This document shows, piece by piece, positions 1-39,700 of a stretch of DNA of 53,254 nucleotides. The stretch spans positions 1 through 53,254 of IMG/VR virus record IMGVR_UViG_3300048686_001049; one strand, 5' to 3'. The notes beneath the pieces were generated by a model. That model searched no databases and was not told where the DNA came from. It saw only the letters and a list, made by a program, of their open reading frames with translations. The stretch is from a virus. Lineage: Duplodnaviria > Caudoviricetes. The position numbers and the translations under genes are program-made. How positions within the stretch are numbered: the stretch's first letter is position 1; each line of letters starts with the position of its first letter.

Positions 1-3000
1 ATAGTAAAGAGACGCAATAAAAAACGCAAAAAATATAAAAAACTAAATGAATTTGATGCGGAAGAATACGCAATCAAGGAAAAAACTTTAGCTTCAGGAA
101 AAGAAAAATTCTTTTATATCCCTGTTGATGTGGAAAATGCTTTTGAAGTAAAATCTTTACTGGACGCAGTACTGGACCACCATAGGGTTGATTCGTTTGT
201 TGATGAATATGGAATTGTTTTAACATCCGGACTAACAGCCGAATCAGTCGATGCAATAAATATTGCAGTAAAAGGCATTGGGACAAGAATAGGAAAAAGA
301 ATTGGCAGCGGTCTAATCGATAGACCGAGAATCGGTGACAGAAGAAGAAGGCTTGGTGGCGGAAGAATTGATATACCTACCGGCGGTATGCGTGGCACAA
401 AAAAACCAACAGGAAACCGTCGCGACGTTGATGCTGATGGTTGGGCTGATGAAGGCACCACGAACCCAGTATGGGTTGGTCTGCCTTCGGGCGCAAACAA
501 AAAACCCACACCATCAGGTACTGGTAAACCCAAAAAACGCACTCCAATCTGGGAGCAAAATCGTCGCCCAAGCCCACCAGTCCCTTCGCGACTCAGAGAG
601 TTGTTGGATGACAAAAAACCAGAATCACGTCGGACACCTCCTCCGGCCCCCCCAAAACCAAAGCCTACAAAAACCCCATCTTCACCACCTCCACCCCCTC
701 GCAAAAAAGAAAAACTATCTTCAGGCACAAAAGATATTACTAGACATCGTTCTGCCAAAAAACTAAAAAATCCAGCCGAAGACGCAAAAGAAACAGACTT
801 TGAAAAGATTGCAAATTCATGGCGCGAACAAGGATTGGGTTGGGTAGAAATTCCGCGATACCCGGCTGACAAAAAACTAAGCAACGATTTCTTACGCGGC
901 AGGGAACTTGGGTACAACCAAGTAAGAGTGATGTGGAATGGTTCGGGCACCTATAAGCGGCCGGCCAATTTTAACGAGAAAGCAAAATCTTCGGTTGAAT
1001 ATAGGACTTGGTTTTTGAACACAGCTAAAACTGCTGGCGAATACATAAAAAACAGCCGTAAAAGCAGTAATACAAGCGAAGCAGAGAAGGAAATAAATTT
1101 TGGCATTCCCGAAGGCATAGAAAACTTTTTGGATGCAGTGAAGCCAAATGTCTCTGGCTTGAGCATGAACGACAGAAGAGAATTTTTTGGTGCACTAATT
1201 CAATATGAGTTAATACCAAGGAAAGACATATTTGGCGGAGATTATGGCTTCAGAGGTGGATACGTACCCCCTAAAGCCATAGAACCTAAACCAAGCAAAA
1301 AACTCAGCAGCGGCAGAAAAGTACCATTCCCTGAAGTAAAACCAAAGCGCACATCAAAACAGCAACGAGATGACGAAAAAATTTACAAGCGTCGCAACGA
1401 CGGAGAGTCTCTCGCCGATGTTGCTGAAAGCCTTGGTCTTTCTCGCGAGGAAGTAAGAAAACGTGAGCAACGACACATGCGTCGTCTTCGCAAAGAAGAG
1501 GGCGAAAGACTAAGTGAAGATTCAAATCGTTCCGGTGAAACACTGTCTTCTGGACGACGAGAGTACGAAGACAAATCAAAGACTTCGGTTAAAAACATGC
1601 CGGCAGATGTTCGGTCGTTTCTGAACCAACAAATCGAATCTCAAAGAAAGATAAACAAAAACTCAGATGTTGCAAAACTCTATGAAAAACTTAGAGATGG
1701 GTTTGAGTTGGACGCCAATGAGCGAGACTTCATTATCGATTTCCTTGACCAAATTGAAAAACTTTCTACGCAAGACAGCCGCGTATATACCCCTGGACAA
1801 AGAGCTTCAGCAAGAAGATTAAATGCGCTTTTGAATAAAGACAACCCAAATTTCCGGGCCCCCAAAGGAACAGAGTTAAGAGACCTTGATGTTCCTTTGC
1901 GTATGGGGGAAGGCGGAAAACTTTCTTCCGGTCTCAAAAAACCAAGAACATTTAGAGAGATGATGACCGAAAGTGACAGACTCAGAGCGCAAGGAATAAT
2001 GTCGGATTCATCATTATTTGACGATGAATGGCAAAAAACTGAATATGGCATTAGAATAAATGCGCCAGACATTGATGGCTCTTATGAAATACAAGGCAAC
2101 GCTAAAGATGGATTCGTAGTCTCTCGTATTGCCGACGCCGTACGTAACGGTGGTCAAGAGGCCAAAGAGTACGAACATGATAAAGTTTTTAAATCAAGAG
2201 CTGCAGCAAAAAAATGGGCAGCAAGAGACTATAAGCTGATATCTCAAGAGGTAGGTCTTTCTTCTGGACGTAAAAAAAAAGGGAAGACAACTAAACGTAA
2301 ACCATTCTCCCCTGAGGACCGACAAAGATTTGCTGACGGAGACCGGTTAAAAGCCAGAACAATTCCGAGCAAAAAGAAGCCTGGCCCAAGTATTGATGAA
2401 TTCAGATTAAGCAGTGGATATGGCGGAGGGTCGAGACCTGCTCGTCGCCTTGCTCAATTGAATCGCCGAGAAGTTGAGCAAATCTATATTCAAGAATCTA
2501 GGGGCATGGAAGAACAGGCTAAAAATCTTTTAGCCAATCTCAAAACCCCATCGTTTGACGAAAGCCTTGAAAAAGGTTCAAAATTAGAGACCATTCGTGG
2601 AAATCTCAAGAAAGCATTCACAACTCCAGCGCTTGTTGGTTCTCTGTCGGATAATAAAAACAGAAAAAAAGACGGACCATGGATGCTTTCGTTTGAAAAA
2701 TTAAGACCCCTTTTGAGAGACCCTAAGGGCGAACCAATGTCTGATGAAAACATTAAAAAAATGTTCAATCTCAATGAAGACGAAATGAAAAAATTGCTAG
2801 GGAAAAACGGCGCAATATCGTCTGCTTCTGTTCAGTCGTATTTGACTGCACATTCGGATACTAACTTGCCCGGCGAATCAGATGGACTAATCAGAAAAGT
2901 TTGGGGATTTGATTCTGCCCCATATTGGTATGACGGCCTAGAAGATAATAAGCCAGTAAGTCGTGAGGATTATGACGCCGCCAAAGACGAATCAACCTTT

Positions 3001-6000
3001 TTGGGTGCCATCTACCCCTTAGATGCACCTATAGATTTTAAGACTTCAACCGAAATAGATGAAGACGCTCTTCCTAAAAAGAGAGAAATAGTTGTTGCAG
3101 AAGATGTAAAGCGCTCAATAGAAAGCGTGAAAGGAAAAGAATCTAAAGAGGCCTACAGTCTTGACAAGTTAATTGAAAAACTTAATATGCCAGCTGATTC
3201 AGGAAAAAATCGAGAAGAAATAGCTAAAGCTTTTGAGAAGTTACTAGGGGTCCCAACTAGCACGGAACAATTATTTACTTCTCCAGGTTCATGGAGAAGA
3301 AATGGTGTACCAACAAATGTGGTTTTAGAATTAAAAAAACGTAAGCACATTACTAGTGCTGCCGACGTTTTTGGTAGTGATGAAGCCAAAAACCTTGACA
3401 AAGCAACAGAACAAAATAAATTCTTTAGTGCTTTAGATAATCTCCTAAGAGCAAATGGGATACAAATAGGAGGAGGTAAGGGCAATCTTTCGGACAGAGT
3501 TATTGGTGAAATTATGGGAGACGCTATTGGCTCTAAGCCTTTGGCAAAAATAGGTCGAGCCTTTAAAAAAGCTGGAGAAGAAAGGCCTTTTACTTACAAA
3601 GTGGGCGCCGCTGTCGTTTGGACTCCAGAAGAAATTCAAAAAACTCTTGATGGAATTAATAAAGCAACAGGAAAAGATTTTAAAGTTTCTGACCTTAAAT
3701 TGAGTAGCGGTAGATTCGGCAAAGGTGAAAGAAAAATAGCACCCAGAGCAGCAACTGCAGTTCAAATGGAAATGGACCCCCGTAATTCCAAACTTGCTAA
3801 AAAAATTACTTATGACCCACAAGACCAAGTTCTTGGAGTTACATATAGGGACACCGGTAAAACTGTTGAATTCAGAAACGTTACATACGAGAGTGCTCGA
3901 CAGGCTGGGGCTTCAAATAATCCAGACAAATTTATTAGAAGCCTGGAAGAAGGTCGCAAGTTATCTTCGGGCAGAACTGGGACTGAATCTTTTTCAGCTA
4001 ATGAATCAATTAACGAAATTGACGAAAGATTGCGTACAGCCAAAAAAAGAGGCTCAAAAGTATTTAATGAAATGCTTCGAGCAGAAAGTAAAAAACAAAG
4101 TTCTCAAAAAGCAAAACCGAATCCACTAGACAAAATGAAAGATGGTGAACGTCTTTCATCGGGCAAACTTGATGAAGTTTATAAGTCAATCACTCAAAAA
4201 TTAATTAAAGCAATAGAGACTGCTGATGGAGATAAGTGGGAAGCCCCTTGGTACAAAGTTGGTGCATTTCCTAAAAATCCAACCAATAAAAACCGTCCAT
4301 ACTCAAACACAAACTTATTGTTCCTATTAATGGCGCAAGAAGATAAGGGATACACGAAACCATATTGGGCAACATACAAGCAGTGGGAAAAATCTGGCGG
4401 CCAAGTCAAGGCGGGAGAAAAAGGAACCAAAATTCTCGTCCCAAGAGTTTACAAAGCAAAAGAAGATGATGAGGGCAACAAGAAGGGCGGCGGAGTATTT
4501 TATTCAGTTGCAACGGTATTTAATGTCGACCAAGTAGATGGCGTAGATGTTGATGAGATGGAAAATAAATTTCCAAAACTTTCAGAAGAGCAAAGAGTTT
4601 CTCAACTTGAAAGCGCTATTAAAGAAATAGGTGCAAAGATTACCGAAGCCGCAACTGATAGGGCTTACTACAGTCCATCAAAAGATGAAATAGTTCTACC
4701 AAAATTTGAAAATTTTAAATCTCCTTTGGATTTTTACGCGACTCAAGCTCACGAATTAATGCACTGGACCGGACACACATCACGTCTAAATAGACCAAAC
4801 ATGAATTATTTTGGTAGTCCAGAATACGCATACGAAGAATTGGTAGCAGAAATTGCTTCTGCTTTCTTTATGGCAGCACATGGTCTCTCCGCGGAGCCGC
4901 AGCCACAGCATGCGATGTATCTTGCTTCATGGCTTAAGCGACTCAAATCAGACCCTGATGCTCTGCAAAAAGCAGTGTCCGATGCACAAAAAGCTGTAAA
5001 TTTCGCCATCAAACTATCCCCGAGCATGAGTAAACAAATGGCCGTATCAGAAAACGTAGATGACGTGCCTGGGATAACGGTCCCCGACACTGGCGGTAAG
5101 TTGTCGTCGGGTAAAACTCCTGATTTACCTGCTCTTACTAGGGCGCTCGAAAACGCAGGGCTTGCTGAATCAGTAACCGAAAATATGATTACTGAAGCTA
5201 TTGGTGTATGGAAGGACAACCCTTCGCTACATAGGCAATATATTGAGCGTCTTGACGGAGATGTTAATGGCGCAGTGTTCTCTCTCTATAACGATTATCT
5301 CGAAGATATGTTTGACCGCTCTCCAGAGGGAGCCGCAAAAATAGAACGCGAGCTTAATGAACAATATGAAGCAACACAAAGCCTTTCGTCAGGCAGACCA
5401 TCAAAAAGACTTTCGCGTCGACTAAAAGATGATGAATCATCAAAACTCTCATCTGGCAAGCAACCATGGGATGACCCCGCTGTACAGAAAAGATTAATAG
5501 ACGGTGCAAGAACAAAAAAGAAAACCAAAGCCGATGGTAAAACCGAAAGTTACATGGCAAGCATGGTTAGACAATTTGACGCAGGGAAAAAACTGACAGA
5601 CAATCAGTGGAAACCTCTGTGGGAAAGCTTCGGCGGCGAAACCTCGGCCACAAAACCGAGCACACCGTCGACTGCATCAACAAGTAAAGCCCTTAAGCCA
5701 TTTAGCGGCCTTAAGCGTAAAGAAATAGACCTGTCTGATGTTAAAAAATATGATTACCCAACGACTGATGCTAAAGGAAAGAAAAAACCACTTCCGACAG
5801 AAGAGCAATCAGATGCGATAGATGCAATGATGACCGGTAGCGACGTCAAGGTTGCCGCATTAGCCGCAACCGGTAAAACTACTACGGTAATCAATTTTGC
5901 AAATCGACTTCTAGATGAAGAACCTGAATCAAGAATTCTTTATTTAGTATTTAATAAAAATGCTGAAAGAGACGTTGTAAAACGTGGCATGCCAGAAAAC

Positions 6001-7983
6001 GTAACAGTCAGAACAATGGACGCAGTTGCCTTCCGCGCCATGAAAACAATTGATTCGAAAATGACTGACAAAAGTTTTAATCCATCAATAAAACCAATCA
6101 AGTCTTTCCGAGATAGAGCGGCATATCTTGGTGTCAAGAGAATGGTGTCTCAGGGAGACGAGCTAACATCTGCCGATGTTGTGAAAAGAATAGCAAAAGC
6201 CGTAGAACATTTTTCGATTAGTAGCGATACGGAAATCGGACCACAACATTTTAATGGGAAATTTAATGGAAAGCTTGCTGTCGACGATGATGCAATACTC
6301 CCGGAATTAGTGGCACTTGCCAACAAGTACTGGAAAGACATTAAAACTCCACGAGATGGAGTTGCTGGAATGTTGCCAGTCAATAACACACATATTACAA
6401 AAATGTGGGCTTTATCAAAGCCAGACATAGGTTCGTCAATGGATGTAAATATCGCAATGGTCGATGAAGCGCAAGATATGAACCCGGTTTTTGCTGAAAT
6501 TTTACAAAAAGCAAATAAAGTGCAAAGAATATATATAGGCGATACAAACCAGGCCATAAATGCTTGGCGCGGCGCGGATGGACAGACTCTTGTCGACGCT
6601 CCAGCTAAATACACAATGCCAATAACTGATTCGTTTAGATTTGGTAAAAATATTGCAGGCATAGGCAATAGATTTCTTTCGCTACTTGGAGCTAAGGAAA
6701 AAATGACTGGTCGGAAAGTGGATAAATCTGGCAACCCGGTAGATGGGTTTATTGGGGACGTAGAAAATCCAACAATGATTCTTACTCGCTCAAATGGTGG
6801 AGCGATGGCCGCAACGATGAAGAGTTTTGAAAAAGGCCTAACCGTCTATGGCAGCAAAAACTTCAAAGAAGATTTAACAAAATTTATTGACAATGTTGAA
6901 TACATGGAAACATCCGCTAATGGCAAAAAAGGTTATTACACCAGCGCTGATGGTAGAAAAATCTATGAAAGACCATCAATGAGTCAAGACCTTGATGGCA
7001 TCAGCAATATTGAAGAATTTAAAGAAGCAGTGGAAAAGGGTGATGATAATAGGCTAAATATGCTTAACAAGCTGTTGAGCGAACATGGCGTTGAAGAACT
7101 TCGAAATGCCCTTGGCAGAATCATAACCGATGAAAAAAAATTACCCAAAAACCGTGATGAATATGTTCACATACAGACAGCACATACGTCTAAGGGTCTA
7201 GAGTCGCCCAGAGTCCAGATATGGAGCGATTTTGCTAAACCCAAAAAAGCTACCGATGGCACAAACATCACAATAATGCCCAACGAGCAAGAGCTCAGAC
7301 TTTCTTATGTGGCGGTCACCAGGGCTGAAGAAAAACTAGATTTGGGTTCTTTGTCGTGGATTTATAATCATACGAGCGACGAGGATGGCGCATCGAACAA
7401 ACTCAGTTCTGGTGCAAACTTGTTGATGCCGAGACTTTCTGGAACACTTTCGAACGCCATAATTAATTCAACACCGGCGGCTCGTAAAATGAGAAAAGAA
7501 TGGAAAAAGCGCGAATCAATGTCTGGACACCCATCTAAGAGAAAGGGTATAAAATTAAGTTCCGGAAGATATCTTAATTTTGAACGAATATTGTCTTCGG
7601 ATGAACTTGATGACAACCTAGAACCAATTAGGGGGCCTTATGGGGACCCAAATGACTTAATCCACCGAAAGCAAGTCAGATATGCGGTTCGCCGTTTCAA
7701 ACATACCGAATCCGTTCCAGTCCGTCAGCGTAGTACTGGGCTTCCTACTGGGCGTATGGTTGAAAGAACCAGGACATATTTCTGGATTGAAGACATGAAG
7801 ACCAACCAAACCCCAGTATGGGCTTCAGGTATTTTTTACTACAGAAACCACCTAATAGGAAGATTGCAATCACACCTAAATTCATTGTCGGAAGACGAAA
7901 AAGCCGCACTAGTAAAAGAATACGAAAAAAGTGCCAAAACATTTACCCGTCGCACGAAGGATGAATTAAAAATTCCATCCTAA
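1..7983 (+). CDS. Giant polyvalent protein 1 (>2660 aa, 5'-truncated): leader, sigma70-r4-like HTH, KTSC, ArdC and UvrD-like helicase modules separated by 14 LSSG motifs
   Basis: Frame 1 is open from base 1 (IVKRRNKK...PVDVENAF), so the GTG at 130 is probably internal. Domain motifs are listed in the sub-features. Confidence 0.85.
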   Translation: MVKRRNKKRKKYKKLNEFDAEEYAIKEKTLASGKEKFFYIPVDVENAFEVKSLLDAVLDHHRVDSFVDEYGIVLTSGLTAESVDAINIAVKGIGTRIGKRIGSGLIDRPRIGDRRRRLGGGRIDIPTGGMRGTKKPTGNRRDVDADGWADEGTTNPVWVGLPSGANKKPTPSGTGKPKKRTPIWEQNRRPSPPVPSRLRELLDDKKPESRRTPPPAPPKPKPTKTPSSPPPPPRKKEKLSSGTKDITRHRSAKKLKNPAEDAKETDFEKIANSWREQGLGWVEIPRYPADKKLSNDFLRGRELGYNQVRVMWNGSGTYKRPANFNEKAKSSVEYRTWFLNTAKTAGEYIKNSRKSSNTSEAEKEINFGIPEGIENFLDAVKPNVSGLSMNDRREFFGALIQYELIPRKDIFGGDYGFRGGYVPPKAIEPKPSKKLSSGRKVPFPEVKPKRTSKQQRDDEKIYKRRNDGESLADVAESLGLSREEVRKREQRHMRRLRKEEGERLSEDSNRSGETLSSGRREYEDKSKTSVKNMPADVRSFLNQQIESQRKINKNSDVAKLYEKLRDGFELDANERDFIIDFLDQIEKLSTQDSRVYTPGQRASARRLNALLNKDNPNFRAPKGTELRDLDVPLRMGEGGKLSSGLKKPRTFREMMTESDRLRAQGIMSDSSLFDDEWQKTEYGIRINAPDIDGSYEIQGNAKDGFVVSRIADAVRNGGQEAKEYEHDKVFKSRAAAKKWAARDYKLISQEVGLSSGRKKKGKTTKRKPFSPEDRQRFADGDRLKARTIPSKKKPGPSIDEFRLSSGYGGGSRPARRLAQLNRREVEQIYIQESRGMEEQAKNLLANLKTPSFDESLEKGSKLETIRGNLKKAFTTPALVGSLSDNKNRKKDGPWMLSFEKLRPLLRDPKGEPMSDENIKKMFNLNEDEMKKLLGKNGAISSASVQSYLTAHSDTNLPGESDGLIRKVWGFDSAPYWYDGLEDNKPVSREDYDAAKDESTFLGAIYPLDAPIDFKTSTEIDEDALPKKREIVVAEDVKRSIESVKGKESKEAYSLDKLIEKLNMPADSGKNREEIAKAFEKLLGVPTSTEQLFTSPGSWRRNGVPTNVVLELKKRKHITSAADVFGSDEAKNLDKATEQNKFFSALDNLLRANGIQIGGGKGNLSDRVIGEIMGDAIGSKPLAKIGRAFKKAGEERPFTYKVGAAVVWTPEEIQKTLDGINKATGKDFKVSDLKLSSGRFGKGERKIAPRAATAVQMEMDPRNSKLAKKITYDPQDQVLGVTYRDTGKTVEFRNVTYESARQAGASNNPDKFIRSLEEGRKLSSGRTGTESFSANESINEIDERLRTAKKRGSKVFNEMLRAESKKQSSQKAKPNPLDKMKDGERLSSGKLDEVYKSITQKLIKAIETADGDKWEAPWYKVGAFPKNPTNKNRPYSNTNLLFLLMAQEDKGYTKPYWATYKQWEKSGGQVKAGEKGTKILVPRVYKAKEDDEGNKKGGGVFYSVATVFNVDQVDGVDVDEMENKFPKLSEEQRVSQLESAIKEIGAKITEAATDRAYYSPSKDEIVLPKFENFKSPLDFYATQAHELMHWTGHTSRLNRPNMNYFGSPEYAYEELVAEIASAFFMAAHGLSAEPQPQHAMYLASWLKRLKSDPDALQKAVSDAQKAVNFAIKLSPSMSKQMAVSENVDDVPGITVPDTGGKLSSGKTPDLPALTRALENAGLAESVTENMITEAIGVWKDNPSLHRQYIERLDGDVNGAVFSLYNDYLEDMFDRSPEGAAKIERELNEQYEATQSLSSGRPSKRLSRRLKDDESSKLSSGKQPWDDPAVQKRLIDGARTKKKTKADGKTESYMASMVRQFDAGKKLTDNQWKPLWESFGGETSATKPSTPSTASTSKALKPFSGLKRKEIDLSDVKKYDYPTTDAKGKKKPLPTEEQSDAIDAMMTGSDVKVAALAATGKTTTVINFANRLLDEEPESRILYLVFNKNAERDVVKRGMPENVTVRTMDAVAFRAMKTIDSKMTDKSFNPSIKPIKSFRDRAAYLGVKRMVSQGDELTSADVVKRIAKAVEHFSISSDTEIGPQHFNGKFNGKLAVDDDAILPELVALANKYWKDIKTPRDGVAGMLPVNNTHITKMWALSKPDIGSSMDVNIAMVDEAQDMNPVFAEILQKANKVQRIYIGDTNQAINAWRGADGQTLVDAPAKYTMPITDSFRFGKNIAGIGNRFLSLLGAKEKMTGRKVDKSGNPVDGFIGDVENPTMILTRSNGGAMAATMKSFEKGLTVYGSKNFKEDLTKFIDNVEYMETSANGKKGYYTSADGRKIYERPSMSQDLDGISNIEEFKEAVEKGDDNRLNMLNKLLSEHGVEELRNALGRIITDEKKLPKNRDEYVHIQTAHTSKGLESPRVQIWSDFAKPKKATDGTNITIMPNEQELRLSYVAVTRAEEKLDLGSLSWIYNHTSDEDGASNKLSSGANLLMPRLSGTLSNAIINSTPAARKMRKEWKKRESMSGHPSKRKGIKLSSGRYLNFERILSSDELDDNLEPIRGPYGDPNDLIHRKQVRYAVRRFKHTESVPVRQRSTGLPTGRMVERTRTYFWIEDMKTNQTPVWASGIFYYRNHLIGRLQSHLNSLSEDEKAALVKEYEKSAKTFTRRTKDELKIPS
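1315..1542 (+). other. Sigma70 region 4-like HTH module in polyprotein 1
   Basis: GESLADVAESLGLSREEVRKREQRHMRRLR matches the tl.EiA..lglSreRVRQiE.rAl.kLR pattern; bounded by LSSG at 1303 and 1543. Confidence 0.7.
3712..3960 (+). other. KTSC-like module in polyprotein 1
   Basis: SKLAKKITYDPQDQVLGVTYRDTGKTVEFRNVT...ASNNPDKFI resembles the KTSC pattern; bounded by LSSG at 3700 and 3961. Confidence 0.65.
4165..5100 (+). other. ardC: ArdC-like antirestriction module (ssDNA-binding N domain plus zincin MPTase)
   Basis: WEAPW...PKNPTNKNRPYSNTN...WATYKQW...GGQVKAGEKG...VFNVDQ, AYYSPSKDEIVLP, HELMHWTGH (4750), YAYEELVAEI, YLASWL; bounded by LSSG at 4153 and 5101. Confidence 0.9.
5790..7401 (+). other. 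SF1 UvrD/FBH1-like helicase module
   Basis: PTEEQ, Walker A ALAATGKTT (about 5857-5883), LYLVFN, VDEAQD (6460), GDTNQAINAWRGA, SFRFG, TAHTSKGLE, YVAVTRA; ends at LSSG 7402. Confidence 0.9.
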
Positions 7984-8137: not shown

Positions 8138-9844
8138 ATGAATAGCGATGAAAAAGCTACGGTCAATATCGATGCCGATGGGGCTGTCGTAAAATGCGCA
8201 AAAGGTCTTGCGTCAGGCGAGTGCGGCTACGTTAAAGGCGCTGAAATATGCGGCAAATGTGGAGCTATGGCTGTTGAAGTCAAAATGGTTCCAGTAGATA
8301 TTTTCAACACAAAAGGTGATAAACCGGAAATGGACGAAGAATACATGAAAATGGCAGATGACTCTTATCCAATCGAAAATGAAGATGACCTCAAAATGGC
8401 AATTATGGCTGTCGATGATGCAGAAAACCCTCAGGCTGCAAAAATGCATTGCATGAAGCGTGCGCAAGAACTTGGCAAGGAAGACATGATTCCTAAATCT
8501 TGGATGTCGGAAAAAATGGATGATGAGGAGTACAGCGAAGCGAAGGCTGCTGACGTGGGCGACGACGAAGACATGGGCGACGATGAAGACATGGATGATG
8601 AAGAAGACATGGACGAAGATGAAGACATGGATGAAGACGAAGACATGGATTCGGAAGAGAAAGCTGCATCAATGGATGACGAAGACGAAGACATGGACGA
8701 AGACATGGACGAAGACATGGATGAAGACATGGATGAAGATGAAGATGAAGATGAAGATGAAGAAGACATGACTGAAGATGAAGACATGGATGAAGACGAA
8801 GAAAAAAGCATGTACATGCCCTTTAAGGCCAAGAAGCGTAAAAAGGGAATGAATTCAGACATGGACGTCGAAATGGACGAAGAAGGCGACGCAGAACTTG
8901 CAGAAGAAATGGAGCCAATGCGTAAGCGTCGAATTGAATCAATGGGCATGAAATCTGAAGATTTCTCAAATAATGGTTATGTTTGCGCGATAGAGCGCAA
9001 AGCTTATGGTGGCGGCGTGTCCGTATGCGATGACTGCCCAGGTGGTTGCGTGTCAGAGAAGGGCCTACCTGGCCTTCTTCATATTGAAGGTCTTGCCGAA
9101 GAGATGTTCGATGGAAGCGTCATTGACTCTGGTTATTCGGCAAATGCAGATATGTATGTTGTTGATGTTCAAGTCAAAGATGGTCGTGCAGTAGAAGTTT
9201 TCGTAGACGGCACAACAGCAGAAGTTGTGGGTTGGCACAAACTCGATGAAAACGTATTTGAGTCAAAGTCGGCAAACAACGAACTTACATTGATTAGCTT
9301 TACCGAAGCAGCAGAAATAGCCGTCAAGTCAATTGACGGTCATGTTGTCGCTGTAGAGCCCGACACATTCGAAGGCTACGATGCGTACGCCGTAGAAATT
9401 GATGGTTTTGACGGCAAGTCTTACGACGTGTTTGTTGCCATGGATGGAGAGGTTCTTGGTTACGACAAGTATGAGCCAGAAGAGGCAGAAGAGATTGAGG
9501 CAGAGGCTGCAGAGATAGCTCTTAAGAGAGCATTTTCCGAGGACCAGAGAAATTTAATGGCCAAAGAAGGAACTGCTCTTCCAGATGGTTCATTCCCAAT
9601 TGCTTCTTCCGAAGACCTTCGTAATGCAATTCAGGCTTTTGGTAGAGCAAAAGACAAGAATGCTGCAAAGCGCCACATAATGAAGCGTGCAAAAGAAATG
9701 AATATGGAAAAATTGATTCCAGCAACTTGGTTGGTAAACGAAAACATTGAAAGCAAAGAAAAATCTGCCGAACAAGTTGAGGGAGAATTCCTTAAGTCAC
9801 TAGTAGAGTTTCAGCTTCTTGAATTAGAAGAAGACTCAATCTAG
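8138..9844 (+). CDS. Acidic head-associated (scaffold-like) protein with Cys-rich segments, an Asp/Glu/Met repeat, two PepSY-like domains and two copies of a FPI...DL..AI...KRA helical domain
   Basis: GGGAG RBS; ISFTEAAEIAVKSIDGHVVAVE...YAVEI...DVFVAMDGEVLG is PepSY-like; internal repeat at about 8360-8505 and 9580-9730; located in the head module. Confidence 0.7.
   Translation: MNSDEKATVNIDADGAVVKCAKGLASGECGYVKGAEICGKCGAMAVEVKMVPVDIFNTKGDKPEMDEEYMKMADDSYPIENEDDLKMAIMAVDDAENPQAAKMHCMKRAQELGKEDMIPKSWMSEKMDDEEYSEAKAADVGDDEDMGDDEDMDDEEDMDEDEDMDEDEDMDSEEKAASMDDEDEDMDEDMDEDMDEDMDEDEDEDEDEEDMTEDEDMDEDEEKSMYMPFKAKKRKKGMNSDMDVEMDEEGDAELAEEMEPMRKRRIESMGMKSEDFSNNGYVCAIERKAYGGGVSVCDDCPGGCVSEKGLPGLLHIEGLAEEMFDGSVIDSGYSANADMYVVDVQVKDGRAVEVFVDGTTAEVVGWHKLDENVFESKSANNELTLISFTEAAEIAVKSIDGHVVAVEPDTFEGYDAYAVEIDGFDGKSYDVFVAMDGEVLGYDKYEPEEAEEIEAEAAEIALKRAFSEDQRNLMAKEGTALPDGSFPIASSEDLRNAIQAFGRAKDKNAAKRHIMKRAKEMNMEKLIPATWLVNENIESKEKSAEQVEGEFLKSLVEFQLLELEEDSI
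8557..8800 (+). repeat. Coding low-complexity tandem repeat (GAAGACATGGAC/GATGAA units; EDMD)
   Basis: 12- and 18-nt degenerate units, directly visible. Confidence 0.9.
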
Positions 9845-9860: not shown

Positions 9861-12800
9861 ATGACGGGGAAGCCGTTTCGCAAAACAAGAATAATAATTT
9901 CAGACAAATTAATATCTGCTCACACCGAGGCTAAAGATACTGATTTTTCTGCACATTTTTTTAAAAATGCCGTTTCTGAATCAATGAGTTCACCTCGCCT
10001 TGACGCTGATTTAGCCATTAAAAGCTTGGGTTCAAGCATTGGTTCAAAGAAAAAGCCAACATACGACAATACGGACAATAAGACCCGAACCAATTCAGGC
10101 GGTGAGCCAGGAATGGTAGTTACCCCCAATGGCTATAGATACCAACCAAAAGAAAAAAATGGTCCAGGCAAAGAACTTGTTTTGTTTCCCTCACAGAAAA
10201 GTCGAGAGTCAAACGGAAAAACCAGTAATTTTGGCTGGCTTGATAGAAAAAATACAAGCAGCATAAAAAACTATATTCAGCATCAAAAAGAACAGCCTCA
10301 AATAAGAATTAGAAAGTTTAAAGTAAACCCTAAGACGGACGAAATTATTCCTGGTTCAGACATAGAGATGTCTCCGTTCCGCAAAGATAATAATTCAGAA
10401 AACAATATTTCTGAAAAAATGCTTCCAGGAAGAACTCTTGGGTCAAGAGGAACATCACTAATAGGTAGGGCTGCAGGAAAATTCGGCATAGTAAGGGATG
10501 CTTTAAACAAGTTCAGATGCCCGCCAGGAACCCCAGCCGCAAACCAATTTACGGACCACATGGGAAGCAATTGCTTTGGTCAGTCAGCAGGAGACTTAGT
10601 TGACTTTGCGATAGACGCTTTTCAAGCAGCCCGCAAAGCTTTCACTGAACCAAACTCTCGAGAAACATTATCTAAATTTTTCAAAGAAGCAGCCTATGAC
10701 GCCGACAATGGAAGATTTGGTTCCTTTTTTGCTCGGACAATGTGGCGCGATGCTGACGGAAACAAAATACGTAATTTACGTAAATGGAACTCAGAACTAA
10801 GAGAGGGTGAATACAAAATATTTGCGGGGGGCATGGCAAATGCACAACTCGAACTTGAAGCTCAAGATAATCGAATAGCAAATCTTCGCGACTTATTGGG
10901 AGTACCAAGCACCCCAGAAACAAGAAAAAACAACGACGACCTTCATGAAATATTTAGGATTTTAAAAGAAAGAGGAATGCTAAATGTAACCCTTGGCAGC
11001 CCAAATCCCCAAGAAGAAGGAGAGGGACAACGACCTACCCCTGAGCAAGTAGCTCAAGTGGTTGAAGCAAGACTCAGGGCAGTACCAGGATTTAGCGAGC
11101 TATCAAGAGAGCAGCAAGAAAGAGTCATTGCAAATGATATTGAAAGATTCTATGAAACGGAACGAGCTTTGTTGGAAGGGTTTTTAGATGAATACGTCAA
11201 AAATCCAGAACATATGGGAACTATCAAAAACCTTATTTATGAATACAAGACGTCGCCACCAGCTGAATTTTTAGATGAAGCGAGCTATAACGTAAATGTC
11301 ATAAATGGCCAAGCTATTGGTGAAATAAGAATTGATATTCCTTTCATAATGCATTCACAAGAAACAATGCTGCCTCAACTGGCAGACAATGAAAGACTAA
11401 GAATTGATGTTGTTGGCGCAAAAACTGATTCTGAAGCGGCTAAACATCTTGGCGATTTCTTACTAACTACTGCTCAGCATTCCAAGCAACATGCGGCAAC
11501 AGTCGAAGAAAGAGGGTTTGCGCGACACATAATCAAACACGAAATAGCACACTCAATTCAGGCCAGGGTGTTCTTTGATGAAGCCAAAAGACAAATTAAC
11601 GAAAATGGCTTCATATCAATTGGGGATAAAAAAATTGAAAGCCTAGATAAATTAACTGGTTCAGATTTGCTTAACCTCATGACCGAATCAGCTGATTCCA
11701 TTAATCTTGAACAACTCAGTAAGGCTTTATCAAGAACAGAAAATATTATGTTCATGGCCGGGGAATACCCTCGAGACTACATAGACAAAGGTCGCGAAAT
11801 CACGGCAATTGAAGCAACAGCAGAGCTTTGGGCTCTAAGAAACGCAGGGCTGATTTGGGGCGACGATGTTGATGCCGCCCTTGAGTGGATGGACAATAAA
11901 GCTGACGGACGAATCGGAGAAAAAAGGGTTCGCTCCGATATTGAAACAATGAGAATTGTTGAAGATTCATATTATCTAAGCCCTGGCGAGTCTTCTGCTC
12001 CTTGGTACGTACCAGAAGACCCAGTTGCCACAGCCGCGGCGAAAAAACGAGCAGAAAATAAAGCGCTTAAAGGTGCTATTGAAAAATTGGACCACGACAC
12101 AATTATTGATGAACTTGCGCAACTCGAATTTAAAAAAGATGAAATTAATTTAAAAATCAATGCCGCAAAAGCCATAGGCGAAGACGTTTCTGATTTAGAA
12201 AAACAATTATCAGAATTGAAGAATGATGAAAAAATTATTCGTTCTGTATGGAAAAAGAAATATGGTACCGGCTCCGAAGACGCTACGGCTCTCAAGCTAT
12301 TAATTAAAAAAAGAAGAGAAGAACATGGTGCATTTACGCCAGACGTTCTTGAATCAAAAATTCGTGACAAAAAAATAATGGCAGCAAAAGCCGATGCGGC
12401 GACTATAGACAGCTTAGATGAATTGGTGCAAATGATGGCGGCTTATGACTTGGACATAAGACTTGCAACCAGCGATAAAGACAAAGGATTAAAGCGTGAA
12501 GAAAGAAAGGCATACCTTAGTCGATACCGAGCACTCCTTGATAAATCCGGCGACTCTCGTAGTTGGGTTGAGCAAAAGCGTGAAATGGAAGAAAAAATAG
12601 ACAGAATTCTTAGGCCTACAAAAACTGCGCCACTCAAAAAACCCAAAACCCCAACAACCGACAAGCAAGCTACAGATGTGGGTAATAAAGCAAGAGAAGA
12701 AGCGCTACGCACAGCTACACCTAGACAAAGAATTGCAGTTTCAGAATTTTCTGACTCACAAACATCTTCAGTAGCTCAGTTGTTTGATGCAGAAAAAAGG

Positions 12801-15800
12801 GATTCAGCTCTTGCTGGCATGAAGGAAAGAAATCAAAGGCTAAAAAAACAAGGCCTCAAAATCGACCCTACATTGCGAGGTGAGGCGTCACCCGAAGAGC
12901 AAGTCGAAAATATTCTTATTCCAACAATGGAAATTATCGACAAATCCAGAATTGGTACAAACCTAGAAGTAGAGGCAGAAATTGAAGTAGATGTTAATGA
13001 CGTTACTGGGGAAATTTCGCTTTCGGAAATCACGCATGACTCATTTATAAGCGGACGTGTTTTATCTAAAAAAAATCCATTTTCTGTAGATTCAAAAATC
13101 AAACCTCCAGTTAATGGAAAACAAAAAAGAAAAATAATAATTCAAACCACCGAAGAAGATAGAGGTATATTCCCTCATTGGTCAATGGATGTTGACAAAG
13201 ATGATAAGCGCCCACAAAAGCTAGTTTTACCTCCAGGCAAGTTGAAAGTCGTAGAAATACGAGACGATGGAACAGTAGTCGCTCAAATATCTGAACAGAA
13301 AGATACTGAATCAGTATTAGATACCTTGGTCGCTGCTGATATTAAAGGAACCAGGTTTCGTTCAGTTGCCGACAGGTACATAGTTGAGCGTAGAGAAAAC
13401 AAAATTCCACGCGAACAAAAAAGACCACTAAAAGCGCAAGAAACCCAAGACCGAGGAATTCTCGCCACTCGAGAATTAAAGAGAAGAGGTGGACGTTTTG
13501 GTCAAGGTCTTGATGATGACGATATAGATGAATCGTCTTCAAAACTTTCTTCTGGCAAGATTCGTACCAGAAGCCAGGTCAAGTCGGAAAGAATTAAGAC
13601 AGAAAAAGAAAACATTGCAGACGTCAAGGCTGTTCTCACAGGTAATGAACCAACTAAATTCAAATCACTTTCTCGTGACTCCTTGGACCCAGAGGTGGCT
13701 GAATTAATTATAAAAAACGAGCCAGAACAAATCATCAAATTAGTCGAAGACGCTGCAGTTGAACTACATAACAGCATGGATAAAAGAACAAGAGTCAGAA
13801 TGAGAGAGTCCGAACTCAATAATTTTGTTTCTTCTGGTACTTACAATCCAAGATTGCAAGCAGAAACAGTTCTGGATTCAGAATCAAAGCCAAACAGCAG
13901 GCTAAAGCGCAGGATTAAGGACTTTAGGGATAAGGCAAAACAAGCTGCCGCCGCCCAGGGGGCCAAAGATGAATTTAAAAAATTAAAAGAAGCAAATCTA
14001 GGCAACGGCGAACTACATAAACTGGATGATGCGACATTAATGAGCAACCTTGGCCTAGAACGCTCAAAACAAAAAAGTGTTATTTCAGACAATCCAATAT
14101 ATAGAACAAACTCTGCCGAACAAGCGATTGCTTTGTTGGCTCTTGGCTATGAAGTAGAGGTTCCAGACAGAGCCGAACGAAAGATGGTCAAAAATGCAGC
14201 GCTACAAACCGAAAAAGAACTTAAAACTCTTGCCGGAGCAGAAGCTGACAGTCTTGGGTTATCTGGTGACGAAAAAGATAAATACATTAAAAATTTTATG
14301 GAAACGCATGATATAGACCTTTGTGGCTTATATGAGGTCGGACGAAATCTCTTTTGTAACGAAAACATTGGAGTCAATCGTGAACACATGCCACAGAGCG
14401 GAGGCCCCACTAAGGGAGCCAATTCACCAGCGATGAGGGCTTTAATATCTGGCCATGTTGGCGGTGAGTATAAAGATGCCTTTAACCCTTCTTTGTCCAA
14501 GGAAGATAAGGAACGATATTTGGCAATAGTAAAAAATCTGGGAAATCCTGACACGTTTGCGAGCGTTAGTGAAGAAGATAAAAAATGGGTATTCGATAAT
14601 ACTGTTTGGAGCAAAGTCGAGGTTGTGACAGAACCCGAATTGATAAAATTTCTAAAACAAGCCCTTCCTGGTGGAGAAGACTCAGTCGTCCGTAAGTCAA
14701 AAAATCCAGACGACCTTTTTGCATCACAAAAACAATTAAAAAATGCACAAATTGATAAGACTGCTGAAAACATTTACGACCAATACATGGCCGCCAGAGA
14801 CAAGTGGGGCAAGCCGGGGACTGAAGAATTTATTAAAAATCGTCAAAATTTTTTGGATTCAAAAGAGGCATGGTTTCAGGGGCCAATACTTACGTCAAGA
14901 GATGGGTATGTAGTTGACGGACATCATCGATGGGCTGGCATCAAAATGCTTAATGACCATTTGCCAGAAGATGAAAAAATTCAAGTTCAAGTAAACGAAT
15001 TGCAAACATCTATTTTTGAAGCCCTGACTTTAGCAAAAGTATTTCAAGAACATCTGGAAATTAAAGGAAAAACTGTAGGAAAAGTTGTTCCTTATGAGGA
15101 TGGCGAAACCAAGCCAATGTCCAAAGCAGATTTTGATGAACATATGGCGCTATTAAATAATCAGATAAAAGAAAAAATTCAAGAAATAAAAGACAAAAAC
15201 ATCTATCCAATTAAAGTCAAAAATCTTGCAGCCAATAACGAACTACGTTCTCCGGGTCTCAAAGATAGTCGCGACAGGTCTGTGCGAATATACGGCATGG
15301 AATGGAAGCCAGAATACTCAGAGAACCAGGCACTTGAAGCATCCAAGAAATGGGATGGGTGGGATGATGTTCCACTTACGGAAATTGATTTGTCATCAGA
15401 GATTCGTCCGACCGAATCCCACTTAAAAGGTTCAGCAATAGATAGCGTTGTTTCCGGCGAAGTTCCTTTTAGGGAGGGTTATCACCCGCATATCGTCATA
15501 GACGTTGATGGGAAAATGTATGTGTCTGATGGACACAATAGAGTTGCCATGAATCGTGCTTTAGGGAATCAGAAAATACAAGCACGAGTAGTCGACCTTC
15601 GAAAAGTTGATGCACCATGGGGGGCGGTAGACCCAAGTAAGAAAAATTACAAAGGCTACGACCTTGTCGACCCACCAAATCCTTTTCCAAAAGATGGCAC
15701 ATATCCGGTCGAGATAGTGGAGGCAGCTAAACAGCAACGAGAAAAGATAGAAAAAGTAGAAAAAGAAATTACGGAAACATTAATAGACCTTGCAGAAAAA

Positions 15801-22962: not shown

Positions 22963-24318
22963 ATGTCGCAAGACAATAAGAGAGTCGAAGAACTGCAATC
23001 AGCTCTTCGCACAAAAATGGCAGAAAACAAGGCAATTGCTGATTCTTTTAAAATCGAAGAAGGCACAGTAGTCGTCTCTGCAGAGCAGAAATCAGCGTTC
23101 GACAAGAACATGGTTGACATCAAAGAAATCAAGAGTCTCATCTCTGGTTTGTCGGCAATGGAAGAAGTTGACCAGTGGGCATCACAGCCACAAAGTTCAG
23201 TAGCAGGCGCATATGCTTCTGCAGCTGCAGGTGTTCAACAACTCACAAGCCGCGAAATCAAGACAATCGGCGAAATGTTCCTTGACTCACCAGAGTTCAA
23301 GTCACTCGCCAATGGTCGCAACGGCTACAACATGTCATCACCATGGCAGGTAGCTGCATCGTTGACTCAACACAACTACGGAGTCAAAGATGTCTTCAGT
23401 GCAATGCCAACAGTTGGTGCAATTGCTCGTGGTTCGGGTCTCGGCGACTTCGGCACCATTCAGCGTGACCCAATGGTGACACCACCGATGCGCACAAAGC
23501 GTGTTCGTGACCTGTTCCCAGTTCGCACAACAACAGCATCGGTCATCGAGTACTTCCGTCAAGTTGGATTTACCTCGGTTTCAGGCGCACCAACCAACAA
23601 CGCTGCATCAGTTGCTGAGCGTTCAGGTAACGCCTTTACCGCTAAGCCACAATCTGGTTTCTCGTTTGTTGGTGAGCAAGTAGCAGTGAAGACATTGGCT
23701 CACTGGGAGGCTGCACACCGCAACGTCCTTGCTGATGAACCACAGCTGCGTTCAATCATTGACAATGAGTTGATGTACGGTCTTCGTCTTCTTGAAGACC
23801 AACAAATCCTCAACGGTGACGGTGCAGGAGAAAACCTTAAGGGTATTCTTCAGACATCAGGCATCCAGACTTACCTCTGGTCGTCGGGTGCTTCGGCTCC
23901 AGTCAAAGACACACGAGCAGACGCAATTCGTCGTGCAGCAACACTCGCTTACTTGGCCTACTACGAGCCAAGCGGCGTTGTTGTTCACCCATCGGATTGG
24001 GAAAAACTCGAATTGGCAAAGGACGCACAAGGTCAGTACCTGATTGCTCTTTCAGTAGCAATGGGTGGCGAACCAAAGGTGTGGAGAATGCCAGTTGTTG
24101 ACACACCAGCAATCGCACAGGGCACCTGCTTGACAGGCGCCTTCGGCACGGGAGCTCAGCTCTACGACCGTGAGCAGGCAAACATTCGCATCAGCGAACA
24201 GCATTCGGATTTCTTTATCCGCAACGCAATTGTTATCTTGGCAGAGCAAAGACTCGCTCTTGCTGTCAAGCGACCAGAAGCGTTCGTGAAGGTAACATTC
24301 GACAACGCTCCAGCCTGA
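22963..24318 (+). CDS. Major capsid protein, HK97 fold
   Basis: AGGAG RBS; coiled-coil delta domain; RVRDLFP, AASVAE..AKPQS, VKTLAHW, LADEPQLRSII, EDQQILNGDG, VHPSDW, F.RNAIVILAEQRLALAVKRPEAFV; strong codon bias; followed by a terminator. Confidence 0.95.
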   Translation: MSQDNKRVEELQSALRTKMAENKAIADSFKIEEGTVVVSAEQKSAFDKNMVDIKEIKSLISGLSAMEEVDQWASQPQSSVAGAYASAAAGVQQLTSREIKTIGEMFLDSPEFKSLANGRNGYNMSSPWQVAASLTQHNYGVKDVFSAMPTVGAIARGSGLGDFGTIQRDPMVTPPMRTKRVRDLFPVRTTTASVIEYFRQVGFTSVSGAPTNNAASVAERSGNAFTAKPQSGFSFVGEQVAVKTLAHWEAAHRNVLADEPQLRSIIDNELMYGLRLLEDQQILNGDGAGENLKGILQTSGIQTYLWSSGASAPVKDTRADAIRRAATLAYLAYYEPSGVVVHPSDWEKLELAKDAQGQYLIALSVAMGGEPKVWRMPVVDTPAIAQGTCLTGAFGTGAQLYDREQANIRISEQHSDFFIRNAIVILAEQRLALAVKRPEAFVKVTFDNAPA

Positions 24319-31803: not shown

Positions 31804-31884
31804 AATAATTTTCCTTAAGTGGCTTAATTGGTCTATCGATATTAACCGAAACCAGAATACTAAAATGGTCTAAAATTAATCAAA

Positions 31885-32211: not shown

Positions 32212-32226
32212 ACCCCATTATATACA

Positions 32227-32865: not shown

Positions 32866-32957
32866 AAGCCCAGATTAAGCCAATTAGCCCTTCCACAGGG
32901 GATGGTCGTGCTGAGCACATCCACTAAGGAGTATTTTTGTGTACTAAGCTCTTGCCC

Positions 32958-33155: not shown

Positions 33156-33199
33156 AAATTTAATAATTTCTCTTTCTCAAAAAAGAAAAAAATAGCGCC

Positions 33200-33613: not shown

Positions 33614-33635
33614 TTACACAAAAGGGAGTTAGTCG

Positions 33636-34031: not shown

Positions 34032-34032
34032 A

Positions 34033-36702: not shown

Positions 36703-36764
36703 ATAATTAATAAACCTTGTTATATCGACTTCAGGTCGACAGAGCATACAATAGATATACCACT

Positions 36765-39700
36765 ATGTTCGAACCAATCATTATAAAGCTTGACTACTCG
36801 CCACGAGACGAAAGACATAGCAAGCAGATAAAAAGCGTGGCATCTAGACTCGGTAAAAGAATTGGTAGAGGCCTGGCGGGCAGGCCAAATATTGGTAAAA
36901 ACAGAAGAACGATTGGTTCTGGAAGAATTGACATACCCACTGGTGGTGTGCGTGGATACAAGAGACCAACAGGAAATCGTCGCGACATTGACAGAGATGG
37001 CTGGGCAGACGAAGGCACAACTAACCCTGTATGGGTCGGGCTGAGCGGTGGGCGAGATAGACCAATTATTGAAACCCAAAGAGCTAGACCAAAAATAAAT
37101 TTAAATAATCAAAAAATAAATGAAAGAAAAAAAATTCGCCAAAAAATTAAATATGGCGAAAGTTCTTTGGATGGTAAATTAATTAGTAAAAAAAACGGCC
37201 CCAAATGGTTGAATGGATTAAGCAATGAGCAGATTTCAAACATCCTCGTCCCCGACTCGTATCAGACTTATTCTCAAATGCTGGCCGATGGATTCGGTGT
37301 CGACAAAGAGACTATAGAAAAATATCTTGAATCTAGATGGGGGGTTGGAAAGCCTTGGTTGGAAATTGATTACTCGGAAAGTTCAACTAAGCAATTAAAA
37401 CAAGCACTCAAAACTGCTCTTGACGAATCGCCTATTTTTTCTTGGGCCGTAAGAAATTACGGCTCACCAACATATACGGTAATGACCAGAAAAAGTGCAG
37501 AAACATACAACAATCGAGATGCAGTAAGGCCATTATATGATGCACTCAAAAAAATGTATCCAGATGCACCTGGAGAGCCACAATTTGCCGCAAGCAATCA
37601 TCTTGATTTTGAAATGGTGACTTTTAATCCAATCAATGTGATTGATAAAAAATCATGGCAAACAAATGAACCAATTTCAAGCAGCTTTCAAACGTCTAAA
37701 TTACCATCTAGCTCCGACACCGTAATAGATAGAAGCATCTCTGGAACTATTTTGCATGAATGGGCTCATTGGTATCACTCTGAGATGCTTTTGGCAAATA
37801 TTGAAAGTTCCGAAAATAAAAAACGGTCACCCAAATCTCTAGTTAATCCTCAAGATTCAGATTTTGCCGAAAAAATAAAAATTGCACTTGAGTACAATTC
37901 TGATAATGGAAACATGAATCTTCATTCAACAAAAAAACCACTAGAAGATTCACAGAACGAGCCAAGGACGATTACATCTTATGGGCACGTGAGCAGGAAG
38001 GAAATGTTTGCAGAAGGGATGCTTGCCTATATGCACCCTAATGAGCAGCTAAAACTTAAGGCAATAAATAAAAAATTGAGACAAGATATAGAGACAATTT
38101 TAGCTGGAGATAAGGGCGTTGATGCGTGGAAAGACAGTAAGGCAAACATAAGAAGAGAAAAAAATATTTTAAGTTCGGGTAGAAAAAATCGTAAGCTAAC
38201 AAAATTGTCATCAGGTTCAAAAACTGAGGAACCCGAAAGACCAACGTACCCAAGACACCCTAGCTATGGTCCATTCCTTGATGGCGCTGATGACGTGTTT
38301 GCGGATGTAAAAAACTGGAAAGAATTCAAAGAAATTTACGATAATTTAGAAATAAATTTCTTTGACTACGAAACCACTGGATTGGTTTCTGACGAATTTC
38401 GACAATCGTCCGGTAATGGCGCTCCAGTGCAGTTTGGTGTAACAAAGACCAAAGGCGGCAAGGAAATTGGTCGACTAAATATTTTTATGAACCCGGGAGA
38501 AGAGCTTGGGGATTGGTCGAAAAAAAATCTTAAAAACAAAGACGGAGAACCACTTACTGACGAATGGCTGTCATCTCAAATATCGATAGCTGATGCGCAT
38601 AAAAAATTAATCGAATTTGTGGGTCCTGATGCAATTTTTGGAGTTCAAAATGCAGTATTTGATAAAACGGTACTAGAAGATGCACTGACATCATCAGGCA
38701 TCGAATGGAGACCAAAGGGCTGGGTAGATACGAAAGTTGTATCCGACTTAGTAATTCCTAAATGGACAAAAGAAAATCAAGACGCACCTTGGACTACTGA
38801 CGGGAAAACTGGTGAAAAAATTCCGTCAAGTAGCCTAAAGGCTTTGACCGAATATCTCAACATAGACCTTGGGAAAAAACACCATACAGCAGACGCTGAT
38901 GCGGCAGCCACATCAGAGTTGATGTCAAAAATTATTGATAAAGCAATTGAGAAAAATTGGAGCAACGATATTTTTGATAAAAATTGGCGCGACCAAAAAA
39001 TCAAAGACAAATTAGAAAACTATCAACAAAAAATTATTGATTTTGAACAACAAAAAAGTAATTGGATTTCTGAAACGTCGCCTAAAAAATCCACAGTGCC
39101 AAAAGAAGTGGAGAAAAAAGAATTTGGTTTTGGTAGACTATCTAGTGGTACCACTTCGTACAAGGGCCGTCACGAATCTCCTGATGCGTCAAGTGGGGCA
39201 CCTCTACACAACCTGGCTAATGGCGCCATATATCCAGAAGATATCTATGGTCCAAATGGGGCGAACCTTTATGGGGGCGCATTCCCGGATTTAGCTCAAA
39301 AAGCTGTTGCTATTTTTAGAAAACTCCGCAATAAACCAGACTCTGAATTAACCATATATAGGGCGGTCCCAAGGGGCAAAAACATTAAAGAAGGCGACTG
39401 GGTAACGATTCTCCCCGAATACGCAAAAATACATGGAGATAGTTGGTTGAAAGACAACTATGAAATAGTGACCAAGAAGGTAAAAGCAAAAGAATTATTT
39501 AATGAAGGTAATTCACTTCTTGAATTTGGTTATCACTCAAAATTGTCTTCTGGCAAATACGATGGTGCCCCTACGTATAAAGGAAAAGTCTGGAAAGATA
39601 GAAAAAACGAATTAGATGGCCCTGTGTGGCCATTTCGGTCTCAAGCCAAACAGTACCCAGACGATGGTCCGTCGGGAATTTCATATTTTAAAGGCGTAGT

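Follow-up and report, generated by a model that had tools for sequence, protein, structure and literature searches.

Why should two giant proteins of one phage, encoded more than 36 kb apart, share a single short segment when the rest of their chains differ? The question is posed by IMG/VR record IMGVR_UViG_3300048686_001049 (Duplodnaviria; Caudoviricetes), a linear stretch of 53,254 bases with 41% G+C that is estimated to be 36% complete and that is called the window below. It contains three giant open reading frames (ORFs) on the + strand, polyprotein 1 (PP1, 1-7983), polyprotein 2 (PP2, 9861-17810) and polyprotein 3 (PP3, 36717/36765-43976). The shared segment lies inside PP1 (copy A, 271-483) and close to the start of PP3 (copy B, 36831-37043), on the + strand in both cases. 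Here we describe it as the core of a conserved module of ~90 residues, which follows a protease domain in PP1-type proteins and opens the chain in PP3-type proteins. As read from these sequences, the module could be a two-part docking peptide through which both the protease and a further cargo polyprotein enter the prohead, an explanation to which we give slightly less than an even chance.

The shared module and its two copies

A preliminary description of this DNA had reported the two stretches as colinear, and translation and comparison agree with it: the encoded segments are 71 residues long, align without gaps and are identical at 52 of the 71 positions. When whole PP1 and PP3 were compared by BLASTP with composition-adjusted statistics, the likeness extended over 89 residues (55 identities, no gaps, E 4e-32), the next segments being two at E 3e-4 and the remainder lying at E >= 0.75. 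A hidden Markov model (HMM) of the segment searched against the six frames of the window hit these two places only (E 1.4e-44 and 1.4e-43; next E 0.78), and searching the complete record of 53,254 bases gave the same two. The six-frame search gave no third, weaker copy in PP2, in the acidic protein encoded behind PP1 or in the DUF3721/DUF5872 protein encoded before the capsid gene. The cargo downstream of the copies, described earlier as otherwise different, is indeed so except for one weakly shared stretch of ~60 residues (PP1 residues 1803-1873, 5407-5619, versus PP3 residues 1083-1148, 39963-40160; 25/72 identities, BLASTP E 3e-4). This stretch begins at an LSSG tetrapeptide, has the motif ...QF..G.KL[TS]D.QW..L and may be a small shared cassette.

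At the DNA level the copies are 72.8% identical. Codon by codon, 29 of the 71 pairs are the same, 23 show silent differences only and 19 encode different residues, with 0.195 nonsynonymous (dN) and 1.07 synonymous (dS) substitutions per site and a dN/dS of ~0.18. These values of dN and dS indicate an old copy under purifying selection, neither a recent duplication nor an assembly artefact.

A profile of 78 positions (A2), made from 12 diverse copies and containing 25 invariant columns, was run against 1,835,955,588 cluster representatives and retrieved 41 proteins at E <= 1e-3; for 38 of these the E value was 1e-10 or lower. The preliminary description had suggested listing what such a model is fused to, and nearly all 41 carriers proved to be giant chains with [LF]SSG as their most frequent tetrapeptide. 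In IMG/VR, 60 loci were found with one pattern set, and 43 further stretches with the DGWVDEGT variant. Pfam at E <= 10 held no family for the module save one chance-level row, PDB sequences at the same threshold gave no match, and neither did tblastn of 50,697 records of deposited phages; when bacteria and archaea were scanned with seed patterns, each species being represented by one genome, 87 pattern matches resulted, none of which was confirmed as the module.

These results bear on whether the segment has no special role at all, being a commonplace domain present in both proteins or a low-complexity likeness that arose by chance. Its richness in Gly, Arg and Lys would fit such an explanation, which is nevertheless extremely improbable in view of the BLASTP E value, the 25 columns invariant in 12 diverse sequences, the low dN/dS and a position that is fixed in all 42 carriers tallied below. 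Chance or low-complexity likeness as such was rejected on the E value, on the two-place HMM result and on the invariant columns.

The pair recurs in related phages. Six further contigs have two copies of the DGWVDEGT type on the same strand, 36.7-38.7 kb apart (36,560 bases in the window), and this ~37-kb pair is conserved across phages whose capsid proteins are only ~75% identical. The fraction of identical residues between the copies within a genome is 0.73, 0.80-0.82 and 0.83 in three lineages, as against 0.43-0.59 for positional orthologues when lineage A, that of the window, is set beside the others. Synonymous sites within the pairs are saturated in the three lineages (proportion of synonymous differences, pS, 0.58-0.89; dN 0.15-0.20), and in one lineage both copies carry an identical insertion. 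By these comparisons the copies evolve in concert at the protein level, which could stem from co-evolution with a common partner or from an ancient conversion on which selection then acted. Saturation at synonymous sites rules out a recent duplication or a recent gene conversion, and the earlier proposal that copying created a second cargo gene therefore fails as an account of a recent event, the pair being old. An old gene conversion between the copies may have taken place, since one lineage carries the same insertion in both. Among five larger relatives, four have a giant ORF that opens with a full copy, together with a profile match in the protease polyprotein, the latter spanning only profile positions 3-35; two of these four, 156 and 158 kb long, have terminal repeats and are complete genomes.

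The conserved module measures ~70-90 residues, the 71-residue segment being the core of a bipartite peptide of ~90 residues. Its first half is basic, with a predicted amphipathic helix followed by RPxIG and an Arg-rich stretch, and its second half is acidic and rich in Gly and Pro (PTGG..G...PTG...DxDxDGW[AV]DEGTxxPx[WF][VI]G); the first 52 residues contain 15-16 Lys+Arg and 2-4 Asp+Glu, and the last 19 are acidic. The DxDxDG motif resembles an Excalibur or EF-hand-like calcium-binding loop, a likeness that serves as a lead only; no calcium-binding family matching DxDxDGW[AV]DEG was found in Pfam or PDB at E <= 10. AlphaFold2 modelled the PP3 N-terminus (125 residues, 21 sequences) with a mean predicted local distance difference test score (pLDDT) of 50.9 and one helix at residues 14-37, as expected for a peptide that folds on a partner. 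In a 665-residue protease-to-module fragment of L014, a full-length PP1 homologue (13 sequences), pLDDT was 43.9 overall, with an alpha/beta domain at residues 499-561 reaching 64-76 and ~30 residues of the second half of the module reaching ~75. According to these models the module has no stable fold of its own.

The surplus of Lys and Arg in the first 52 residues raises the idea of a basic DNA-binding peptide that, once released, stays with the packaged genome in a protamine-like manner, for which Mu of adenovirus is an analogue. We consider this very unlikely, given that conservation is highest in the second half, which is acidic and Gly/Pro-rich, that in PP1 the module stays joined to the protease fragment, and that only two genes supply it, so that few peptide copies would be present per capsid.

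Module position, protease fusion and predicted joints

The term leader, used in the preliminary description, fits PP3 and not PP1. PP3 homologues start at MFEP, which corresponds to ATG 36765, and counted from this conserved start copy B occupies residues 23-93, almost at the N-terminus as had been noted. PP1 runs off the 5' end of the window: its first residue there equals residue 462 of L014, which is 95% identical and comes from another contig, so that ~461 residues are missing and the segment is no leader in PP1. Full-length PP1 homologues have 3,094-3,112 residues with the segment at residues ~550-640; copy A (window residues 91-161) falls at ~552-622, at the C-terminal end of a protease-bearing first fragment. 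Just 5' of copy A, at 112-270 on the + strand, alignments and AlphaFold2 place a small conserved alpha/beta domain (AFEVKSLLD...VDSFVDEYGIVLTSG), which by the alignments is present only in the protease-fused type.

The protease is seen in homologues, the window itself being without that part of PP1. Peptidase_S78 (PF04586) lies at the N-terminus of the internal-type carrier L011 (residues 41-184, E 1.6e-9, 38.6 bits, cut-off 21) and was found in all five larger relatives (47-51 bits, within an open frame of 2,891-3,207 residues). His64 and Ser128, presumably the catalytic residues of S78, are invariant in 13 sequences. In relatives the gene for the protease polyprotein comes directly after the portal gene, and the large terminase is encoded on the other strand. 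Between the protease domain and the module lie ~350 residues that include a Cys-rich region. In L014, where 510-2504 encodes the N-terminal part of PP1 that the window lacks, this interval has a conserved Cys-rich stretch (KCSNC...C...C.F) and a basic patch, KRRNKKRKKYK, and a region of ~60 residues at 210-270 of the same protein is predicted to be folded with pLDDT ~80.

LSSG occurs 14 times in PP1, once in PP2 and 10 times in PP3, compared with 0.05-0.09 occurrences expected in each. Its form is [KR]LSSG[KR] in the window and [RSK]-L-S-S-G-[KRA] across 264 sites; carriers reach 6,526 residues, and in most of them LSSG is the commonest tetrapeptide. Every Pfam or PHROG domain found in the giant ORFs of the window is bracketed by LSSG sites, for example the ArdC-N/MPTase unit of PP1 (residues 1389-1680) between the sites at 1385 and 1701. 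Judged by this placement, [LF]SSG is probably a protease cut signal, and S78 would be the enzyme that cuts at LSSG. No account of LSSG as a cleavage site was found in a search of the phage literature.

The position of the module relative to these putative joints was tallied in 42 carriers, namely 40 database proteins and the two in the window (P0045, which falls below the domain threshold, was left out). The module lies at residues 1-104 in 35 carriers and at residues 369-631 in the other seven. An [LF]SSG upstream of it was found in none of the 42, even where 370-540 residues precede it, which places the module always in the first fragment. Downstream, a site follows within 60 residues in 28 of the 32 N-terminal carriers that have at least 60 residues after the module, LSSG being the very next residues in four N-terminal carriers, and within 100 residues in five of the seven internal carriers. 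Going by these sites, the module is an N-terminal propeptide in PP3-type proteins and the C-terminal end of the protease-bearing fragment in PP1-type proteins.

In the window, with all features on the + strand, LPSG (481-492) stands at the end of copy A. LSSG occupies this position in close relatives of the PP3 type, and LPSG may therefore be a degenerate form of the site. A Pro- and Lys-rich linker (493-714) leads from there to the first LSSG of PP1 (715-726), 74 residues past the module. PP3 is one of the four exceptions among the 32: LSGG (37041-37052) stands directly after copy B, at the usual spot, where L006, P0006, P0007, P0021 and P0041 have LSSG, and the first canonical LSSG (38169-38180) comes 372 residues past the module.

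The module alone is conserved while the cargo domains are shuffled among carriers. Among 14 N-terminal-type proteins, RNase_T is present in 12, at places from residue 155 to residue 2506, GNAT in six and an ADP-ribosyltransferase in one. A third architecture is found in L019 (9179-16297), where a 2,372-residue ORF has the order DUF3721, DUF5872, module, Pro linker, NUDIX and Zeta toxin; about 1 kb separates it from the capsid gene downstream, and in the same place the window has a separate DUF3721+DUF5872 protein.

A peptide that is always in the first fragment and would usually be removed at the first predicted site might be a propeptide without an address, serving as an intramolecular chaperone or inhibitor of the protease and of the first cargo module until cleavage. 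It would agree with this that the tag adjoins the protease fragment in PP1 and that the first fragment of PP3 in the window also has an HExxH stretch, noticed by eye. We regard such a role as unlikely, as the tag is without a fold of its own and the modules after it differ among relatives, which makes a specific inhibitor or chaperone hard to envisage.

Another explanation is a tether between tag and tag, or between tag and protease, by which PP3 would be presented to the protease of PP1 and cut there. PP3 might then ride into the head on PP1, or processing might be cytoplasmic without a separate capsid receptor. Homotypic binding would likewise predict the co-variation within genomes, the protease fragment of PP1-type proteins has the tag at its end, and the DxDxDG-type loop might bridge via a metal ion. 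Set against these points, the two copies in the larger relatives G001-G005 differ strongly in their second half, L019 has but one protein with the tag and is without LSSG sites, and the tag is unfolded in both AlphaFold2 runs, save ~30 residues at ~75 in the 665-residue run. A tether is a possibility that we regard as doubtful.

Proposed prohead docking, counterpoints and known systems

A docking signal is the explanation that we favour, on account of a conserved unfolded peptide that has a fixed position, would be parted from the cargo at the first predicted cut, occurs on both protease and cargo chains, and co-varies within genomes. The tag would bind a component of the prohead interior, for which the delta region of the capsid protein, the acidic protein beside PP1 and the portal are candidates, and the protease and the second cargo polyprotein would be enclosed together, so that PP3 would be packaged. 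The S78 protease would then cut the [LF]SSG joints, separating the tag from its cargo, and roughly 10-16 effector modules per chain would be freed for delivery with the DNA. In its most explicit form, the proposal is of a portable, co-evolving tag of ~90 residues that loads the maturation protease and a separate cargo polyprotein of >2,400 residues into the prohead of a widespread lineage of freshwater phages, with the protease cutting ~25 [LF]SSG joints to yield injected effectors; we put this forward tentatively, its chance being clearly short of even.

The idea of targeting to the prohead, already voiced in the preliminary description, is upheld in part. In its favour are the N-terminal position in 35 of 42 carriers, the constant presence in the first fragment, the module being the sole conserved part, and the fusion to a protease encoded between the portal and capsid genes. 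It is less well served by the internal place of the PP1 copy, by the lack of recent copying and by a bipartite length of ~70-90 residues, compared with 10-20 residues for the capsid targeting sequence (CTS) of phage T4.

Several points weigh against docking in the prohead. The presence of PP1 and PP3 in virions, cleavage at LSSG and binding of the tag are all predictions from sequence. The capsid protein contains no LSSG, only QL[ST]SRE at its likely maturation boundary, which leaves the link between S78 and LSSG indirect, and the tagged ORF of L019 has no LSSG-like motif. The gene for PP3 is closely packed with those for WhiB and primase/helicase, and these neighbours may mean early expression. 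PP2, which is equally large and lies in the head gene block, is untagged, so that the tag is no general requirement. Alternative peptidases are at hand in the MPTase-PolyVal of PP1 and in other HExxH stretches seen by eye in PP1-PP3; peptidase domains of polyvalent proteins have been proposed (PMC5512222) to process the chains, possibly after injection. In G001-G005 the second half of the protease-linked copy has diverged (DxNxNGxVGEG in the alignment), implying that the two copies need not match along their whole length. Finally, co-variation is weak between lineages B and C, where dN amounts to 0.15-0.18 within pairs, compared with 0.165-0.171 for orthologues.

The arrangement can be compared with several known systems. 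In work of Duda, Oh and Hendrix from 2013, the region of HK97 gp4 that is C-terminal to the S78 domain reportedly brings the protease and fused reporters into the prohead; in the present proteins the module is set apart from the protease domain by ~350 residues and the Cys-rich region. The peptides that load cargo into encapsulins are short and disordered and dock cargo inside an HK97-fold shell; they are usually C-terminal, comprise ~10-40 residues and involve no proteolysis.

The CTS of the T4 internal proteins IPI-III and Alt, which become enclosed in the prohead and are injected later, is described in PMC7411985 as N-terminal, ~10-20 residues long, bound to the prohead core and removed by the prohead protease. 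In PP3-type chains the module is N-terminal as well, mostly with a putative [LF]SSG site within 60 residues downstream, and these chains would be head-internal only if the docking proposal holds. They differ in that the module is ~70-90 residues long and bipartite, has no sequence similarity to the CTS, goes with an S78 protease and is internal in PP1; as an analogy, the likeness would be functional only.

A counterpart of the dual placement is offered by SPN3US/phiKZ-type phages. Head and ejection proteins of SPN3US have N-terminal propeptides of 111-130 residues that are cut by the prohead protease and are proposed to target proteins to the prohead, and a C-terminal propeptide of the protease gp245 is proposed to target the protease itself (PMC7411985). 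The module similarly stands both after a protease and at the N-terminus of cargo. The carriers in SPN3US are, by that account, separate proteins and not polyproteins of 2,400-3,100 residues, and they belong to another lineage with another cleavage motif; a single conserved module common to protease and cargo is not described in the available text of PMC7411985.

The many unrelated effector and enzyme domains, among them ArdC-N and MPTase-PolyVal in PP1, recall the polyvalent proteins that Iyer, Burroughs, Anand, de Souza and Aravind (2017, PMC5512222) described from phages and conjugative elements. These are multi-domain chains for anti-defence and takeover, for which packaging and domain release by embedded peptidases were predicted. 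Their genes lie among head and portal/terminase-type packaging genes, which holds for PP1 and PP2 in the portal-capsid interval and not for PP3 in the replication block. The same study names MuF or portal fusions as anchors and places assemblin-like peptidases only at C-termini (PMC5512222), which makes the present arrangement a variant. Here S78 is N-terminal and the chains have a repeated [LF]SSG joint and a tag, neither of which is described in the available part of PMC5512222; MuF was absent among the Pfam matches at E <= 0.01 for PP1, PP2 and PP3. Among the titles and abstracts listed for prohead proteases, polyproteins and ejection proteins and for polyvalent proteins of bacteriophage capsids, none describes the tag.

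How proteins are chosen for enclosure and injection is known for only a few model phages, and one conserved peptide on both a maturation protease and a second giant chain is a sharply defined, testable candidate signal. The tag links polyvalent anti-defence proteins with prohead proteolysis, subjects previously treated apart. Docking, if borne out, would account for the arrival of >5,000 effector residues in the capsid and would amount to a polyprotein strategy like that of RNA viruses, with a defined packaging signal, in a double-stranded DNA phage, and the tag might be usable for loading foreign proteins into HK97-type shells.

Gene layout and related phages

Taken from the window and its relatives together, the gene order is portal, PP1, the acidic protein, PP2, five smaller genes and the HK97-fold capsid protein. 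The part of PP1 in the window (1-7983, + strand, 5' end cut by the window) comprises Sigma70_r4, ArdC-N and MPTase-PolyVal (Pfam matches ArdcN, E 2.7e-26, and MPTase-PolyVal, E 7.5e-40) and a UvrD-type helicase among its 14 LSSG sites. Directly after it, at the usual position of a scaffold gene, 8138-9844 (+ strand) encodes the hyper-acidic protein of 568 residues, with 30% Asp+Glu overall and 54% in residues 121-270 (DEDMDED runs). It has a weak PepSY-like match and no match in the PHROG search, and is syntenic in two relatives, L011 and L014; by its charge it might be an electrostatic partner for the basic half of the module.

PP2 (9861-17810, + strand) is without the module, has its single LSSG and matched no Pfam family at E <= 0.01. 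An HExxH stretch and two DGHHR/DGHNR (ParB-like) motifs can be made out by eye, and its residues 1958-2134 are covered by a PHROG match to head morphogenesis. The DUF3721 + DUF5872 protein (21710-22810, + strand) lies just upstream of the gene for the HK97-fold major capsid protein (22963-24318, + strand), whose N-terminal delta-like region spans ~95 residues. At the likely boundary between delta region and mature protein (capsid residues ~92-97, ~23236-23253), QL[ST]SRE is conserved in most of 35 relatives and is similar to the core, LSS, of the joints in the polyproteins.

The capsid protein of this lineage is present on at least 281 IMG/VR stretches, with contigs of up to 170 kb, and the lineage is one of uncultured phages with genomes of ~150 kb. 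Its nearest deposited relatives by capsid protein are Gordonia myophages at ~45% identity, Gordonia phage Gray reaching 45.5%; the 41-kb stretch of Gray that was examined gave no module (best E 0.28). Gray (L164, MK279853.1 9166-26714), among the nearest cultured relatives, has separate genes for an RNA ligase, a VIP2-like ADP-ribosyltransferase and a 971-residue helix-turn-helix (HTH) protein between portal and capsid, and its protease has an acidic C-terminal tail; this gene set seems to mirror the layout of the polyproteins in unfused form. WhiB and the Gordonia phage relatives point to an actinobacterial host and the low G+C to a freshwater low-GC lineage, so that the host is probably a low-GC freshwater actinobacterium. 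The available text on whiB-encoding freshwater phages (PMC10914622) makes no mention of giant proteins.

PP3 (36765-43976, + strand) follows its N-terminal module with DnaQ-like exonuclease, ParB-C-like, GNAT and HTH domains and 10 LSSG sites. It lies 12 kb beyond the capsid gene, with nucleotide-metabolism genes on the other strand in between. That it stands outside the head genes, as stated earlier, is borne out by its neighbours: on its 5' side are WhiB, primase/helicase and two small genes, spaced by overlaps or a 63-base gap, and the next gene after it, on the opposite strand, encodes SSB. Farther on, at 49705-50478, an HNH endonuclease is fused to HTH_17 (excisionase-like) and may be a homing endonuclease. 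Within PP3 the peptide LKTENKPKLSSGKTNRANRRANNSRLSSG occurs twice (residues ~1291-1320 and ~1650-1679), flanking an HTH-rich stretch. The repeat includes a 43-base exact DNA repeat (40579-40621 and 41656-41698), which suggests a cassette bounded by duplicated joints.

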